From a virus (taxonomy: Duplodnaviria > Caudoviricetes), in IMG/VR virus record IMGVR_UViG_3300036802_000049, positions 1 through 27,612 of that record: DNA of 27,612 nucleotides, one strand, 5' to 3'. A program made the position numbers and the translations under genes. Below are positions 2,975 to 17,813 of this stretch, piece after piece; position 1 is the first letter of the stretch; every line of letters starts with the position of its first letter. A model generated the notes under the pieces. It saw only the letters and a program-made list of their open reading frames with translations. It searched no databases and was not told where the DNA came from.

Positions 2975-3259
2975 ATGCGAGAACGAGACATCGAAACCTA
3001 TTTACGAGATAGGGTTAAAAAAGCGGGCGGAAAGGCTTATAAGTTTGAATCACCTGGAAATGACGGTGTGCCTGACCGTTTGGTTCTTTTTCCAGGTAAC
3101 CGAATCTACTTCATCGAATTAAAAGCACCGGGTAAAAAGCCGAGGCCTTTACAAGTAAAACAAATGCGAGACATATCGGCATTCGGATGCGACGTTCGAG
3201 TGATTGACAGCAAAGCAGGGGTAGATGAGTTTATTGCAAGGGTAGGTGATGCCAAATGA
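2975..3259 (+). CDS. VRR-NUC domain nuclease
   Basis: GGAGG RBS before ATG 2975; GVPDRLVL…FIELKAPG PD-(D/E)xK motif. Confidence 0.9.
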   Translation: MRERDIETYLRDRVKKAGGKAYKFESPGNDGVPDRLVLFPGNRIYFIELKAPGKKPRPLQVKQMRDISAFGCDVRVIDSKAGVDEFIARVGDAK

Positions 3260-4647
3260 AGTTCATACCTCATAGTTACCAACGATACTGTATTAACCGC
3301 GTTTTAGTTACACCAGCATTAGGGTTGCTGTTGGATATGGGCTTGGGTTGAGGAAAAACGGTTATCACCTTAACCGCAATCATGGACCTGAAATATAACC
3401 AATTTGCGGTAAATAAGATACTGGTCATCGCGCCTAAGAAAGTAGCAGAAAGCACCTGGGCAAGAGAAGCGAGTAAATGGGATCACCTGCAGCTATTAAG
3501 GATTTCCACCGTGCTTGGATCCGCAGCAAAAAGAATTAGAGCATTAAACACACCTGCAGATATCTACGTGATCAATCGTGAAAACGTACCGTGGTTGGTC
3601 GAGCATTACCGAAATGCATGGCCGTTTGACATGGTTATCGTGGATGAGTTTAGTAGTTTCAAAAATCATCAGGCTAAGAGGTTTAAATCATTATCCTGGG
3701 TACGGCCACACATCAAACGGATAGTAGGATTGACTGGTACACCAGCACCAAACGGATTGATAGATTTATGGGCACAGGTATATTTACTTGATAGCGGGGT
3801 GCGGTTAGGCAAGACTATCGGCGGTTTCCGAGAAAGATACTTTGAGCCTGACCAGCGTAACCGAGATCGAGTTTTCTCCTACGCACCAAAAGCAGGAGGA
3901 GAGGAAGCCATCCAGCAACTGATCGGAGATATATGCGTCAGCATGAAAGCAGAGGATTATCTGGAGCTTCCGGATATCACATACAATACGATTCCAGTTG
4001 TTCTGGATAGCAAAGCCCAAAAAGCTTATGAAAAGCTGGAAAAGGAAATGTTACTGCAGGTGGATGAATCAACCATCGATGCTGGATCCGCAGCAGTCCT
4101 TACAAACAAGTTACTACAGCTGTGCAATGGAGCCGTGTATGACGAAAATCGAAACATTGTCGAGATACACGATTGCAAGATTGAAGCATTTATGGAACTT
4201 GTCGAGGGGTTGAATGGTAAGCCAGCATTAGTCTTTTATAACTTTCAGCACGATAAGCAGCGGATCAAGAAAGCCTTGGATAAATCAGGACTACGGATAA
4301 GAGAATTGAAAACTCCGCAGGACGAAACGGACTGGAATGCCCGACAGATTGACATCCTATTAGCACATCCGGCGTCAGCAGCGTATGGATTAAACTTGCA
4401 GCAAGGTGGAAATCATGTAATCTGGTTTGGGCTTAATTGGAGCCTTGAGCTATACCAGCAAGCCAACAAGCGGTTGCATAGGCAAGGTCAAATAGAAAAA
4501 GTCATCATCCACCATCTAACCGTAGACGGTGGGGTAGACGAGGATGTCGTGGCAGCATTAGCAAATAAGACAAGCACGCAAGACCAGCTGATGTTCGCAT
4601 TAAAAGCAAGAATTGAAAAGGTTCAGAAAGATGGTGAGCACACATGA
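3256..4647 (+). CDS. SNF2-family helicase with in-frame TGA (3349-3351) inside motif I; recoded gene or pseudogene
   Basis: ATG 3256 (ATGA overlap with VRR-NUC) is in frame with ORF 3382-4647 and reads MKFIPHSYQ…LLLDMGLG*GKTVITL. Downstream VDEFS (motif II), GLTGTP, GLNLQ and QANKRLHRQGQ motifs are intact. Confidence 0.85.
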
Positions 4648-5599: not shown

Positions 5600-5983
5600 A
5601 TGGCTGAAAAGCGCGAGTCAAACACAAAGTATGTATTGGAATGCGGAAGATGCAAAAGTGAATTACATGTATCAAAACAAAGAATGGTTGAAGGCAAGGA
5701 TTGTCCTTTTTGCAAAGGCCCTTTAATTCATAAGTATGTAAGTGGAGTTGATTACTCTTCTAGTAATGATGTTACTGTTTCCCAATTAAGAGTTGATATA
5801 GAAGTGTCAGATGCTTTAAAAGGTTTAAAGGCAGTAACCAGAGCAGCGAAGAAAGCAACTGCGGCATTGAATGAGTTAGAAGAGCAACAGAGTAAACTAT
5901 CAGGTATTTCAGTTACTTTCAGTAGAGAGTTGATCGAGGGCGAACCTGTTGATGGCTGGAAGACATTTGAATATGCCAAGTAA
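5600..5983 (+). CDS. Zn-ribbon plus coiled-coil hypothetical protein
   Basis: AAGGAG RBS; CGRC…CPFC followed by a helical segment. Confidence 0.7.
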   Translation: MAEKRESNTKYVLECGRCKSELHVSKQRMVEGKDCPFCKGPLIHKYVSGVDYSSSNDVTVSQLRVDIEVSDALKGLKAVTRAAKKATAALNELEEQQSKLSGISVTFSRELIEGEPVDGWKTFEYAK

Positions 5984-6335
5984 ACCCAAGAGGTTCTGCA
6001 AGAAAGCTGGATGTCCTAACGTATCTAGTGAACCATACTGTGCTGATCATAAGCACTTGGCAAGAACTTACGATGAACATCGTGGGACAGCTGCACAAAG
6101 AGGTTACGATAGCAAGTGGCGTAAGGCAAGACTTGGGTATCTCAAGAAGCATCCGCTTTGTGTACAGTGCGAATATGATGGTAAGCATATACCAGCTACT
6201 GTTGTTGACCACATCATACCGCATAAAGGTGATAAGGATTTGTTTTGGGATTCAAAGAATAACTGGCAGCCTTTATGCAAGAGGCACCATGATATCAAGA
6301 CAGTAAGAGAGGATGGAGGGTTTGGTAATAGATAA
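5973..6335 (+). CDS. HNH endonuclease (HK97 gp74-like terminase cofactor)
   Basis: HPLCVQC…VVDHIIPHKG…NNWQPLCKRHHDIKT; immediately upstream of terS. Confidence 0.92.
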   Translation: MPSKPKRFCKKAGCPNVSSEPYCADHKHLARTYDEHRGTAAQRGYDSKWRKARLGYLKKHPLCVQCEYDGKHIPATVVDHIIPHKGDKDLFWDSKNNWQPLCKRHHDIKTVREDGGFGNR

Positions 6336-14721: not shown

Positions 14722-14743
14722 TGTGAAGGAGGAAGACGAAACA

Positions 14744-15112
14744 ATGAGTGATAAAAACGATGTAATCATTATTAATCTTGATAGACCTCGGGTATTACGG
14801 TTTGGTCATAAGGCATTAAAAAAACTAATGGCAGCAACTGGTAAGGATATCGAAAATATTGAGGTTAACGGTAACAACTTAGAAGAGCTGGAAAAAATCA
14901 TTTTCTTTGGACTAGAGGCAGATGCAAAAGAACACAACGAAACTTTAAAGTTGGAAGACATGGAAGATTTGCTTGATCAAGCACCCGTATGGTCTGAAAT
15001 TATGGAAAAAATGCAGTTAGCATTAAACGCAGCATTTGGTAGTTTTGCTGAAGATGAAAAAAACTTACAGGGGATTGTGGAGATGAGCAAGGCAACCAAG
15101 CCGAAAAAGTAA
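14744..15112 (+). CDS. Tail assembly chaperone (gpG equivalent)
   Basis: AAGGAGG RBS before ATG 14744; position between tube and tape measure; slippery site near the 3' end. Confidence 0.85.
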   Translation: MSDKNDVIIINLDRPRVLRFGHKALKKLMAATGKDIENIEVNGNNLEELEKIIFFGLEADAKEHNETLKLEDMEDLLDQAPVWSEIMEKMQLALNAAFGSFAEDEKNLQGIVEMSKATKPKK

Positions 15113-15414
15113 AATTCTCTTGGGAAAACTCTCTTAAATCTGCAATCCATCTTGGGATAGGTATAAACGAATATAACGATATGACACCGTATGAGTTGAA
15201 CTTATTCATTCAGGATTTTAACGATAAGCAAAAGCTCATGAACGAAGAAAAACTCACTTTAACTTGGTTGGGTGCATACTGGCATCGAGTTGAAAAATTA
15301 CAACCTTTAAAAGAAGTATTGGGAAAACAAGAAGTGAAAAAGCAAATGACAAACGAACAAATGCTTAGTGCGGTCACGAATTTAAATGCCGCATTTGGCG
15401 GGAAAACATACTAA
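15058..15414 (+). CDS. Tail chaperone gpT portion, reached by -1 frameshift
   Basis: A AAA AAC heptamer at 15058-15064; the -1 frame opens right after TGA 15055 and runs through LGIGINEYNDMTPYEL to 15414. Confidence 0.85.
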   Translation, partial: KKLTGDCGDEQGNQAEKVKFSWENSLKSAIHLGIGINEYNDMTPYELNLFIQDFNDKQKLMNEEKLTLTWLGAYWHRVEKLQPLKEVLGKQEVKKQMTNEQMLSAVTNLNAAFGGKTY

Positions 15415-15428
15415 GGAGGTGAGATCAT

Positions 15429-17813
15429 TTGGCAATTGTAAGAAACCTGATTGTTCGTGGTGGCGCTGATTTTAGCGGAATGCGGCGGGGGATGCAGCAA
15501 GCACAGAGTCAATTGAATAATTTCCACCGTAGTATTTCGGGTACCGTCAAAAAAATTGGTTTAACTCTTGCTACGATTGGAGCAAGCTGGGGAATAAAAA
15601 GTTCCGTTGATGATGCTATGAAGTTTGAAGCCCTCATGGGAACGCTTAGTACATCTCTAGGAAACAGTATGAACGATTTTATAAAGTGGCAAAACACAGT
15701 TGGAGCCTCAATAGGTTTTTCTAAGTTACAGTCTGCTGAACTTGCAAACATGTTGTCTTTAAACTTTAAGATGTTTGCTACAAGCCAAAAGGACCTGTTG
15801 GACAAAACAACGAAAATGATGGAGACAGCAGCTGTCATTTCCAGTAAGCGAGGCATGGCAATGACTGAGGTTTCGGACCGTATCCGAAGCGCCATGAACC
15901 AAGAAGCAGATGGTGCTGACGAGTTAGGCGTTAACGTCCGTGTAACAGCTATGCAGCAATCAAAAGCATACAAAGAAATGGCAAACGGAAAGCCTTGGTC
16001 AGAACTTAGCACGAATATGCAAAAGGCAATTTTATATCATCACATTTTAGAATCGGTAAGTACAAATCTTGGCGATTCTTTACAGCATAATACTGCTCTG
16101 AAAATGTCGGCATTTACCGCGACATTAAAAGATGTGGGGCTTGCATTTGGCCAAGCTTTCCTTCCCATTCTGAATATTGCTCTTCCGGTATTAACTGCTT
16201 TTATGCGAAGAATTGAAACTGCCCTCCAATATGTATCAGCATTTAGTCGAGCTTTGTTTGGTGTTAGTACTGGTGGAATTAAAGATCAGGCGAAAGCTAC
16301 TCAACAACAAGCGTCTGCGGTTGGGGGTTTAGGAAACGCTACTGAAAAAGCAGGAAAACAAGCAAAGAAAGCGGGGAAAGATGCAAAGGGTGCGCTAGCA
16401 AGTTTTGATGAGATTAACTCGCTCGCTAATAATTCCTCAAGTGGGGCAGATACAAGCGGAGCAGATGCAAGTGCTATCACTACTCCTGACATGGGACAAA
16501 CCGATAGTGGTATACAACCAATTAATGCAGAAATTCAAGCCTACGCAGACAAAGTGCGGGGCTATTTTAATGTAGTCAAAGACTTTATGAAGGGTGTAGG
16601 ATCATTTATCTCGAAGAACAAAGAAATTATCATTAGTGCCATTGCCGGTATAGCGGCGGGATTTGCTGCCTTTGAAATTATCAGTAAGTGGTCAAAAATA
16701 GTAAAAGCCCTGCAAATAGCTTGGGAAGCATTATCTCTTGCTATCACTGGTATATCATGGCCAATTGTTGCAGTAGCGGCTTTAATAGCCTTATTTGTCG
16801 GAAATCTTGTCTACCTTTGGCAGACAAACGAAAAATTTAGAGACTCTGTACTTGGAGTTTGGCAACAAATTAAAGATTTTGTTACAAAAGTTACCTCTGA
16901 CATGTGGGAAATTTTAAAAGGTACTTGGGATAAATATGGTGCCGATATCGTTAGTGGGGTCGGTGGATTCATGAAGTCAATCCAAAGTATTATCCTGAAT
17001 TTATGGGAAAGCTTTTTGAAGCCGGTCATGAAAAGTGGACTAGAAATGCTCTCTAATTTATGGGATAAGCATCTAAAAGGATTAGTAGCACAGCTACTTG
17101 ATTTTGTTGCTAAGTTGGTGAGTTCAGCCTTGGAAATTTGGAACAAGTTTATATCTCCAATTGTGAACTGGTTGATCCAAACGCTTGGCCCCATTTTTGC
17201 AAGTGTTTTTAGCGGTATTTTTAAAGTTATCGGCACGGTTGTGGGGGTAGCTGCTGACGTAGCATCCGGATTATTTAAAGCTCTTGGAGGTATCCTTGAC
17301 TTTATTACGGGTGTTTTCACGGGCAATTGGTCAAAAGCTTGGAATGGGGTTAAGGATATTTTCGGCGGAATATTTGACAGTTTATATAGCTTGGTTAAAA
17401 CCTCTCTTAACTGGATCATCGATATGGTTAATAAAGTTATTTCAGGTTTAAATTCATTAAGCATTAAGATACCTGATTGGTCACCAGTTGGAGCTGGGCA
17501 AAGTTTTGGCATAAACATTAAACCGATACCGCATCTTGCAAAAGGCGGTATCACAAACGGTCCAACACTTGCTATGATCGGGGATAATCCAGGAGGACAA
17601 GAAGTAGTATCGCCATTGGACAAGCTATCAGATATTGTTGCCTCCGCTGTAGGCACTGCAATGATGCAAGCGATGCAGTATAGCAAGCCTAGCACAACTG
17701 GCGGAGATATTTTATTTAACATCGATGGTAGGACGTTCGGCAGGATCATCAAACCGTTTATTGATATGGAGAATAACCGTGTAGGTAATAATGTTAAATT
17801 GAATCCAATTTAA
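15429..17813 (+). CDS. Tape measure protein
   Basis: 794 aa, Ala/Gly-rich helical, aromatic-spaced repeats (W/F), C-terminal LAKGGITNGPTLAMIGD. Confidence 0.93.
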   Translation: MAIVRNLIVRGGADFSGMRRGMQQAQSQLNNFHRSISGTVKKIGLTLATIGASWGIKSSVDDAMKFEALMGTLSTSLGNSMNDFIKWQNTVGASIGFSKLQSAELANMLSLNFKMFATSQKDLLDKTTKMMETAAVISSKRGMAMTEVSDRIRSAMNQEADGADELGVNVRVTAMQQSKAYKEMANGKPWSELSTNMQKAILYHHILESVSTNLGDSLQHNTALKMSAFTATLKDVGLAFGQAFLPILNIALPVLTAFMRRIETALQYVSAFSRALFGVSTGGIKDQAKATQQQASAVGGLGNATEKAGKQAKKAGKDAKGALASFDEINSLANNSSSGADTSGADASAITTPDMGQTDSGIQPINAEIQAYADKVRGYFNVVKDFMKGVGSFISKNKEIIISAIAGIAAGFAAFEIISKWSKIVKALQIAWEALSLAITGISWPIVAVAALIALFVGNLVYLWQTNEKFRDSVLGVWQQIKDFVTKVTSDMWEILKGTWDKYGADIVSGVGGFMKSIQSIILNLWESFLKPVMKSGLEMLSNLWDKHLKGLVAQLLDFVAKLVSSALEIWNKFISPIVNWLIQTLGPIFASVFSGIFKVIGTVVGVAADVASGLFKALGGILDFITGVFTGNWSKAWNGVKDIFGGIFDSLYSLVKTSLNWIIDMVNKVISGLNSLSIKIPDWSPVGAGQSFGINIKPIPHLAKGGITNGPTLAMIGDNPGGQEVVSPLDKLSDIVASAVGTAMMQAMQYSKPSTTGGDILFNIDGRTFGRIIKPFIDMENNRVGNNVKLNPI

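Follow-up and report, generated by a model that had tools for sequence, protein, structure and literature searches.

Predicted ribosomal hopping over a short gap in motif I of a phage SNF2-family helicase gene, a probable relic of a homing-endonuclease cassette

We analysed a stretch of 27 612 nucleotides (the window), a 27.6-kb phage fragment that comprises positions 1 to 27 612 of virus record IMGVR_UViG_3300036802_000049 (Duplodnaviria; Caudoviricetes; 56% complete) and carries a VapE-like primase gene, a VRR-NUC gene, an SNF2-family helicase gene and packaging and head genes, in that order. The helicase gene is interrupted in motif I by a gap of six extra bases that begins with a stop codon. 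Comparison with related genes suggests that ribosomes probably hop this gap. The reading that we favour as a whole, at a probability of about three in four, is that the gap is bypassed in a programmed short hop and is the remnant of a homing-endonuclease cassette, from which the window phage has lost the HNH gene.

Positions 3334–3360 read GAT ATG GGC TTG GGT TGA GGA AAA ACG, i.e. DMGLG-stop-GKT with GGT-TGA-GGA at its centre, letter for letter as given in a preliminary description of this DNA that had recognized an insert in motif I. All features are on the + strand. The VRR-NUC gene (2975–3259; weak PF08774 match with E 7.5e-4, below the Pfam cut-off) has the tail ...GDAK-stop, and its TGA is overlapped by the helicase start, ATG 3256; the ribosome binding site, VRR-NUC stop and helicase start form a AGGTGATGCC-NN-ATGA block (3244–3259) that, according to a position profile, is common to gapped genes. 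The first open reading frame (ORF1, 3256–3351) has 31 codons, translated as MKFIPH...LLLDMGLG, and the TGA at 3349–3351; 432 open codons (GKTVITL...) then run to position 4647. ORF2 (3355–4647), which starts with the resume codon AAA for the Walker A lysine and extends to the helicase end, has RAD54/SNF2 ATPases as its best PDB matches (E about 1e-12), and its nearest relative is an ungapped homologue (L125) with 83% identity. Matches to PF00176 and PF00271 are found already in the segment from ATG 3382, which is without motif I (DxGxGKT); a translation product has this motif in full only when the gap is passed over. As TGA closes 6 of the 16 + strand ORFs checked in the window, the TGA at 3349 is a true stop here.

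The gap recurs in relatives. With the pattern D-M-G-L-G-(TRR)-G-K-T we found a stop between the two glycines in 100 IMG/VR loci (53 TGA, 47 TAA, 0 TAG and 0 TGG), and in all 80 loci with full flanks a frame of 415–470 amino acids was open after the stop. Such recurrence with open downstream frames is beyond chance and is not an assembly error; the chance that the insert could be unique to this genome or an artefact of assembly, raised in the preliminary description, is thus removed by the 100 loci and by GenBank phage records with gaps at the same site. When the stop in the pattern was replaced by NNY, a codon with C or T in third position, two matches were obtained, neither a helicase by translation; VNR codons were not scanned on their own. 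A scan allowing 0–30 nt of any sequence, with 120 loci sampled from about 2600 in the collection, produced 102 ungapped and 18 gapped genes. Altogether, >150 distinct related phage genes have inserts of 1 to 11 bases at the same spot of motif I. Gaps are present in prophages of named genomes (Streptococcus, Succiniclasticum, Ruminococcus and others), with Bacillota, Fusobacterium, an actinobacterium and others as named hosts, and in five cultured phages: phiPaco, Pd_22F, Carmen17, S4-5 and Montesquieu. Databases annotate the gapped genes as truncated or split helicases.

For gaps that follow the Gly31 codon we pooled two content-blind scans, one for GAC, which was complete, and one for GAT; the counts refer to the matches listed. 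SNF2-like sequences made up 58 of 104 matches in the GAC scan and 99 of 120 in the GAT scan and formed 91 clusters at 90% identity; the other 46 and 21 matches, which were not SNF2-like, were dropped, as was a mis-parsed ungapped gene (L530). Gap lengths in the 91 clusters were 1 nt (2 clusters), 4 (19), 5 (39), 6 (18), 7 (6), 8 (2), 9 (3) and 10 (2), so that 70 gaps break the frame and 21 are multiples of three. Gaps of 11 nt were found outside this set. No SNF2 gap of 12–30 nt appeared in the scans, which reached 30 nt, and matches with inserts of 11–35 nt, all from unrelated genes (profile E not significant), were dropped.

The content of the gaps follows strict rules. In 83 of the 91 clusters Gly31 is directly followed by a stop codon (TGA 41, TAG 33, TAA 9). 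The remaining eight have CCA (4), AGG, CTA, TCG or TGG in the A site, codons that are generally slow or rare. The take-off codon, which is GGU at 3346–3348 in the window, is GGT in 76 clusters, GGC in 13 and GGG in 2 (GGY in 89), while ungapped genes use all four GGN codons for this glycine. Landing triplets (GGA at 3352–3354 in the window) are GGA in 26 clusters, GGC in 23, AGC in 18, GGT in 11, GAC in 10, AGT in 2 and AGA in 1; scored against an assumed tRNA-Gly with anticodon GCC, they form at least two pairs in 90 of 91 clusters and are GGH in 60. Within the range from +4 to gap+3, the triplet restoring the frame outmatches every other site in 156 of 159 gapped clusters. In the 4-nt gaps the landing overlaps the stop, the single free base is C in 19 of 19, and TAA, which would give only one pair there, is absent. 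The two 1-nt gaps (L515, L669), the only GGG take-offs of the content-blind set, have the form GGG-T-AAR, in which the extra T and the Lys codon together make a TAA and a +1 shift occurs. Two kinds of variant stand out. Four clusters (L604, L623, L643 and L665) have a CCA-GC gap with a Pro codon in the A site and an AGC landing, without any stop. Locus L383 has a TGAGGG gap with a GGG landing, unseen in the content-blind set, and a downstream frame truncated at 228 amino acids.

In phage S4-5 the gap is situated one codon earlier (CTT-TAA-ATC-CTT). A Leu-class scan in which the landing was left free had 120 matches, of which 107 were dropped as non-SNF2 and 13 were helicases; together with S4-5 there are 14 loci. 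The landing is identical to the take-off codon in 11 of the 14 (CTT 5, CTA 4, TTA 2; two near-duplicate pairs are included in this count) and almost identical in the other 3. A Met take-off is seen in phage Montesquieu, where ATG-TAG-CTA-ATC leads from ATG to ATC. The landing thus tracks the take-off codon across three amino acids, as re-pairing of a retained peptidyl-tRNA predicts. Matched-codon hopping rather than a nonsense mutation, put forward in the preliminary description, gains support from the recurrence, from the frame-breaking gaps and from the Leu/Leu and Met take-offs. Matched ends might also arise by short duplication, which would leave the stop, the GGY bias and the AGC/GAC landing class unexplained.

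Beyond the gap site an open frame of 380 codons or more is present in 105 of the 109 gapped clusters and in all 35 ungapped ones; the last 29 codons of ORF1 are stop-free in 108 of 109 gapped clusters. The ratio of non-synonymous to synonymous divergence (dN/dS) was 0.04–0.20 in 19 gapped–gapped pairs, compared with 0.05 and 0.09 in two ungapped pairs. Relaxed selection after the stop, which in the preliminary description would have spoken against recoding, was therefore not observed in the gapped relatives; stops between the two glycines in divergent phages with purifying selection downstream, its sign of programmed recoding, were. In all-gapped clades with dS near or above 1 a dN/dS of 0.04–0.13 is kept while the gap length changes. 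In a FastTree phylogeny of 121 C-terminal parts, in which deep branches are approximate, gapped and ungapped genes interleave with 27 changes (36 expected if shuffled), 19 of them forced by well-supported branches. We counted 43 changes of gap length in the 105 gapped rows, and gapped alleles often adjoin ungapped ones at 91–97% identity.

A further signal is found 5′ of the take-off, where synonymous sites are constrained in gapped genes only. G in codon 2 (AAG) is present in 91% of gapped versus 39% of ungapped genes, TTC as codon 3 in 92 versus 43%, and GGC as codon 29 in 94 versus 30%; TTR is enriched at codon 30 of gapped genes. Counted by clusters, GGC encodes Gly29 in 96 of 105 gapped and 15 of 65 ungapped ones. 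Codons 2–5 (AAG UUC AUA CC, 3259–3269) are complementary to G GAU AUG GGC UU (3333–3344), which ends right before the take-off codon, and the predicted long-range helix has pair probabilities of 0.66–1.0 in the window. Its mean energy is −12.5 kcal/mol in 98 gapped and −6.7 kcal/mol in 46 ungapped genes, with z-scores against synonymous recoding of −2.0 and +0.4, respectively; when 19 independent pairs are compared, the helix follows the gap in 8.8 versus 1.1 of them, with a median p of 0.02 and a range of 0.001–0.34. Pair 3267:3336 (AU in 56, GC in 14 and unpaired in 26 of 100 genes) has the top mutual information of the whole scan of 5′ against 3′ positions, where shuffle p-values for covariation ignore relatedness. 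At pair 3260:3343, K2R genes carry the matching C at 3343 in 7 of 8 cases. Several lineages with other N-termini form register-shifted helices on the same 3′ strand. The MKFIPH sequence is more uniform in gapped genes too, so that a nascent-peptide signal is confounded with the RNA helix. It is reasonably likely that the helix drives the hop. Pairing of GCC (3251–3253) with the take-off codon is possible in 85–94% of genes, with no covariation.

On the 3′ side the picture is different from that drawn earlier. The hairpin proposed as a stimulator (3359–3376) is present, with −7.0 kcal/mol; still, it is weak (z −0.83) and probably incidental. It is not conserved, since only 8 of 98 gapped genes and 2 of 46 ungapped ones have the entire hairpin. 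The alternative pairing proposed along with it also exists and is weak as well (z −1.68; 13 of 200 shuffles as good). Local 3′ folding does not differ between gapped and ungapped genes (−6.3 versus −6.6 kcal/mol, p 0.65), and downstream synonymous sites bear no added constraint in gapped genes. In the minimum free energy fold 3346–3353 can pair with 3368–3375, a possible counterpart of the T4 take-off stem-loop, again without added downstream constraint. We rejected the 3′ hairpin as a conserved stimulator, the conserved signal being situated 5′ of the take-off.

The origin of the gap is suggested by the gene next door. VRR-NUC adjoins the helicase in 30 of 34 ungapped loci, and the intervening ORFs in the other ungapped loci have no HNH match. 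Between the two genes of gapped loci there is frequently an HNH_3 protein that ends on the helicase start and often has a zinc-finger-like match at its N-terminus. A profile built from the cassette HNHs themselves detects HNH_3 before the helicase in 23 of the 109 gapped clusters and in none of the 36 ungapped ones (Fisher p 0.001); it is found in 6 of 14 Leu-class loci. A search from the HNH side yielded seven loci with the helicase adjoining, five gapped (one of them the query's own locus and one already known) and two with a substituted motif I; none of the seven keeps plain DMGLGKT. The two substituted loci, phage StAB (L677, about 2200–2260; GLGMGKT) and L684 (about 2240–2300; AMGMGKT), have the HNH and no gap, possibly an alternative way to destroy the nuclease site. 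No helicase of the gap-bearing family adjoined the HNH in 45 of 48 IMG/VR HNH loci and in phage Javan616; distant HNH relatives are thus not all in the cassette. In some loci the slot before the helicase holds other genes, N6/N4 DNA methylases and an ORF6N protein (L013:1907–2629, − strand; L174:974–1705, + strand; L379:1739–2428, − strand).

The cassette HNH was not found in the window (a record 56% complete); a likely footprint of it was. The GGTGATGCC block encodes the C-terminus of the cassette HNHs, GGDA-x-stop, and is present in 19 of 23 genes with HNH and gap, 67 of 86 with the gap only and 3 of 36 ungapped genes. The VRR-NUC of the window has a GDAK tail; so do the VRR-NUCs of 47 of 82 gap-only loci and of 3 of 35 ungapped ones, but none of the 22 at HNH-bearing loci. 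Since this tail is common to the HNHs and to the VRR-NUCs of gap-only loci, we read it as the result of an HNH deletion that left the 3′ end behind. A pair of Bacillus phages presents the two states side by side: Carmen17 has the HNH and a 10-nt gap, Wes44 has neither, and their helicases are 97% identical over 300 residues. The two phages, which grow on Bacillus thuringiensis, are 95% alike overall (PMC6430321). The association with the HNH suggests, by analogy with T4 mobA/gene 60, that the gap is probably a self-protection scar of the homing-endonuclease cassette, instead of serving to limit the helicase dose as the preliminary description had supposed.

The following sequence of events would account for these observations. 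The HNH gene would insert between VRR-NUC and the helicase, cut at or near the DMGLGKT codons and spread the cassette; the gap would have arisen since it destroys the HNH target, and the window phage would later have lost the HNH and kept the gap. During translation peptidyl-tRNA-Gly would let go of GGU (3346) with UGA in the A site, slide six bases and re-pair at GGA (3352), yielding a normal DMGLGKT helicase, while ribosomes failing to hop would stop after the 31-residue peptide. The predicted helix between codons 2–5 and the 12 bases before the take-off would form as the mRNA exits, zipping up behind the stalled ribosome and pushing it forward. We infer this action by comparison with gene 60, whose 5′ stem-loop is proposed to fold as it emerges from the ribosome and to drive the ribosome onwards (Manning and Atkins, bioRxiv 10.1101/2022.08.31.505936; Wills et al., bioRxiv 10.1101/2024.12.09.627546). 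The 11–12 bases of the helix match the longest gap, which may be a coincidence. One could speculate, though this is less likely than not, that a widespread family of homing cassettes repeatedly evolved ultra-short Walker A bypasses in phage SNF2 helicases at three neighbouring codons, from a +1 shift to 11 nt, driven by a zipper helix whose 11–12 pairs set the longest hop and gated by the initiation rate; such gating would follow if the helix forms only without a second ribosome on the start codon. If true, it would be a built-in one-ribosome-at-a-time control of helicase synthesis.

Several observations do not sit easily with hopping, with the helix or with the cassette. Take-off and landing in the window, GGU and GGA, are synonymous but not the same codon, with a mismatch at the third position for tRNA-Gly GCC. 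In 31 of the 91 clusters the landing has its mismatch at the first or second position, and one landing (AGA) forms a single pair. Pair 3260:3343 is an A-C mismatch in 20 of 100 genes; the helix falls short of −11 kcal/mol in 22 of 77 gapped genes, and hence is not universal, while 10 of 44 ungapped genes reach this value; the 5′ region of the window as a whole folds no better than shuffles (z +0.37). The downstream frame is truncated in 4 of 109 gapped genes, a number to be read with the fact that the profile filter would miss very early truncations, and the window has no dN/dS of its own, its dS being saturated against all eight nearest relatives. The HNH is absent from 86 of 109 gapped genes, the window included, and the link of HNH and gap, when paired phylogenetically, gives 4.5 versus 0 pairs (median p 0.125), a test that is underpowered.

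Among the rival explanations the most familiar one is stop codon readthrough, with UGA decoded, e.g. as Trp, to give DMGLGWGKT, a GxGKT loop with two more residues. The window gap is in frame, as are the gaps of 21 of the 91 clusters, and products of readthrough and stop-hopping would differ by just two residues (Atkins et al., PMC5009743), so that in this in-frame allele some readthrough may accompany the hop. For the gap family readthrough is no explanation, given the frame-breaking gaps and the Leu/Leu and Met take-offs: 70 of the 91 gaps are out of frame, in the 6-nt class TAA rivals TGA in frequency and TGG is absent (0 of 100), the NNY scan contained no helicase, and no in-frame sense insert was present among the 157 SNF2-like content-blind matches other than the mis-parsed gene. 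We consider readthrough highly improbable; programmed readthrough and selenocysteine insertion were rejected on the same out-of-frame gaps and on the use of all three stops, no search aimed at a SECIS element having been made. Removal of the gap at the RNA level, by trans-excision, cutting and ligation or polymerase skipping, would let the ribosome read a normal mRNA. Direct repeats (GG...GG, CTT...CTT) do flank the gaps, and the long-range helix ends beside the junction like a guide. Still, 1–11 nt leave no room for a ribozyme, the ends are variable (A, C or T, with starts at Gly, Leu or Met codons), and an in-frame stop or slow codon combined with landing triplets fitting one anticodon is a signature of translation. 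An RNA-library contig spanning the gap of a relative without deletion weakly points the same way (depth 2.6, possibly DNA; runs X3 and X4 both contain it but are probably the same data set); contigs X1 and X5, which keep the gap of relative L005, are probably DNA, and three raw RNA runs yielded 0 reads for L005 and so carry no weight either way. RNA-level removal is, in our judgement, very unlikely.

The gapped genes could also be recent pseudogenes with basal leak, knocked out again and again by an HNH cassette that inactivates a dispensable or helper-supplied helicase. Gapped alleles beside ungapped ones at 91–97% identity indicate that many gaps are recent, and the four truncated genes would fit. 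We nevertheless find this very unlikely: the all-gapped clades mentioned above keep a low dN/dS despite changes of gap length, such changes number 43, the gap content obeys strict rules, synonymous sites are constrained in gapped genes only, and five cultured-phage records have gaps. A split helicase, put together from the 31-residue peptide and a C-terminal chain made by re-initiation, is extremely improbable. Phage phiPaco is annotated in this way, with a TTG overlapping the stop, and MobA and MobE elements do include split proteins (Manning and Atkins, bioRxiv 10.1101/2022.08.31.505936). However, an ATG, GTG or TTG is situated within two codons before the Walker A lysine in just 4 of 109 gapped genes, the next start in the window (3382) loses GKT, and a split would leave the landing triplet unselected. 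Other candidates were dropped. An alternative genetic code is ruled out by TGA as the end of 6 of 16 ORFs and by the occurrence of all three stops in gaps; an effect limited to release factor 2 does not agree with TAG in 33 of 91 clusters or with gaps such as TGAC and CCAGC; TRA-GG as a Shine-Dalgarno sequence fails on TAG, on the TGAC and CCAGC gaps and on the lack of a start codon after it. A splicing group I/II intron or an intein remnant needs a catalytic core and fixed ends; with gaps of 1–11 nt and variable ends, and no SNF2 gap of 12–30 nt in scans that reached 30 nt, it was rejected.

The T4 gene 60/MobA bypass (Bonocora et al. 2011, as cited in the two preprints above) is the closest known system. 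The predicted helicase hop shares with it a Gly take-off, an adjoining stop or hungry codon and a matched landing; in the window the match is Gly/Gly, synonymous, and UGA follows the take-off directly. Possibly common to both are a 5′ RNA structure, proposed there as a forward drive and predicted here, and a free-standing homing endonuclease upstream, here a putative one in relatives; the site of MobA is protected by the insert. The MobA bypass insert blocks self-nicking and persists after nuclease loss (Manning and Atkins, bioRxiv 10.1101/2022.08.31.505936), a 'hit and run' with the bypass kept that we infer for the helicase as well. Differences are numerous: the target is SNF2 motif I instead of a split topoisomerase II large-subunit gene, and the nuclease does not split the helicase gene; the gap has 1–11 nt (6 in the window) instead of about 50 nt; a mini Shine-Dalgarno 6 nt before the landing has no room, and there is no conserved 3′ barrier. 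The predicted helix here has a 63-nt loop and is made from the first codons of the helicase gene itself, landings are often synonymous or mismatched, and three take-off positions (Gly, Leu, Met) would be used. The predicted hop works like T4 mobA/gene 60, with the geometry of a stop-hop, yet it is not a member of that system because gene, gap length and signals differ.

That geometry is the one of synthetic stop-hops, in which nine bases specify one amino acid, exactly as in GGU-UGA-GGA of the window (Atkins et al. 2016, PMC5009743); unlike those laboratory constructs, the helicase arrangement is natural, recurrent and under selection. According to the same 2016 review no natural in-frame stop-hop was known, and shorter counterparts of gene 60 are said to have long been presumed. 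The terminase bypass of Streptomyces phage Hau3 is similar in having a short (10 nt) insert in an otherwise intact phage gene and a slow A-site codon as trigger, for which a stop can substitute; it differs in its rare UUA trigger, proposed regulatory role and gene (Antonov et al. 2023, PMC10732093). The words 'helicase' and 'SNF2' are absent from the main text of that paper. Mitochondrial byps of Magnusiomyces likewise are numerous mobile inserts neutralised by matched-codon bypass, but they are 27–55 nt long, triggered by an unassigned sense codon and present in many genes (as summarised by Manning and Atkins, bioRxiv 10.1101/2022.08.31.505936). A search of the open-access literature (PMC, bioRxiv) turned up no description of a bypass in SNF2 helicases of phages, although subscription papers and preprint supplements could hold such cases; bypass is not mentioned in the announcement of Carmen17 and Wes44 (PMC6430321) nor, by term search, in the Montesquieu paper.

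Natural programmed bypassing rests on very few cases. More than 160 natural Gly-type variants, with the Leu and Met types in addition, differ independently in gap length, A-site codon and landing match, and thus offer a ready-made allelic series for the question of what a ribosome needs to hop. The association seen here would be a second, independent pairing of a homing endonuclease with a bypass, and Carmen17 and Wes44, a natural cultured pair, make the reading directly testable. There is a practical side too, as 18 of 120 sampled genes are gapped and such genes are annotated as truncated or split helicases.

Some other features of the window deserve mention. At 14723–15414 there are a 129-amino-acid ORF and, after it, a second ORF in the −1 frame that is already open before the first one stops, with a 794-amino-acid gene next at 15429; the pair is similar to the usual tail-chaperone frameshift pair, and no slippery site was identified in it. 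An HNH protein (PF01844) encoded at 5949–6335, adjoining the small terminase, belongs to a Pfam family different from the cassette HNH_3 and is probably a packaging nuclease. The AT-rich spacer that separates the primase gene from VRR-NUC contains, at 2699–2955, a cluster of 10 of the 22 GTCAAC/GTTGAC hexamers present in the window, in both orientations, and is likely a replication origin with iterons.

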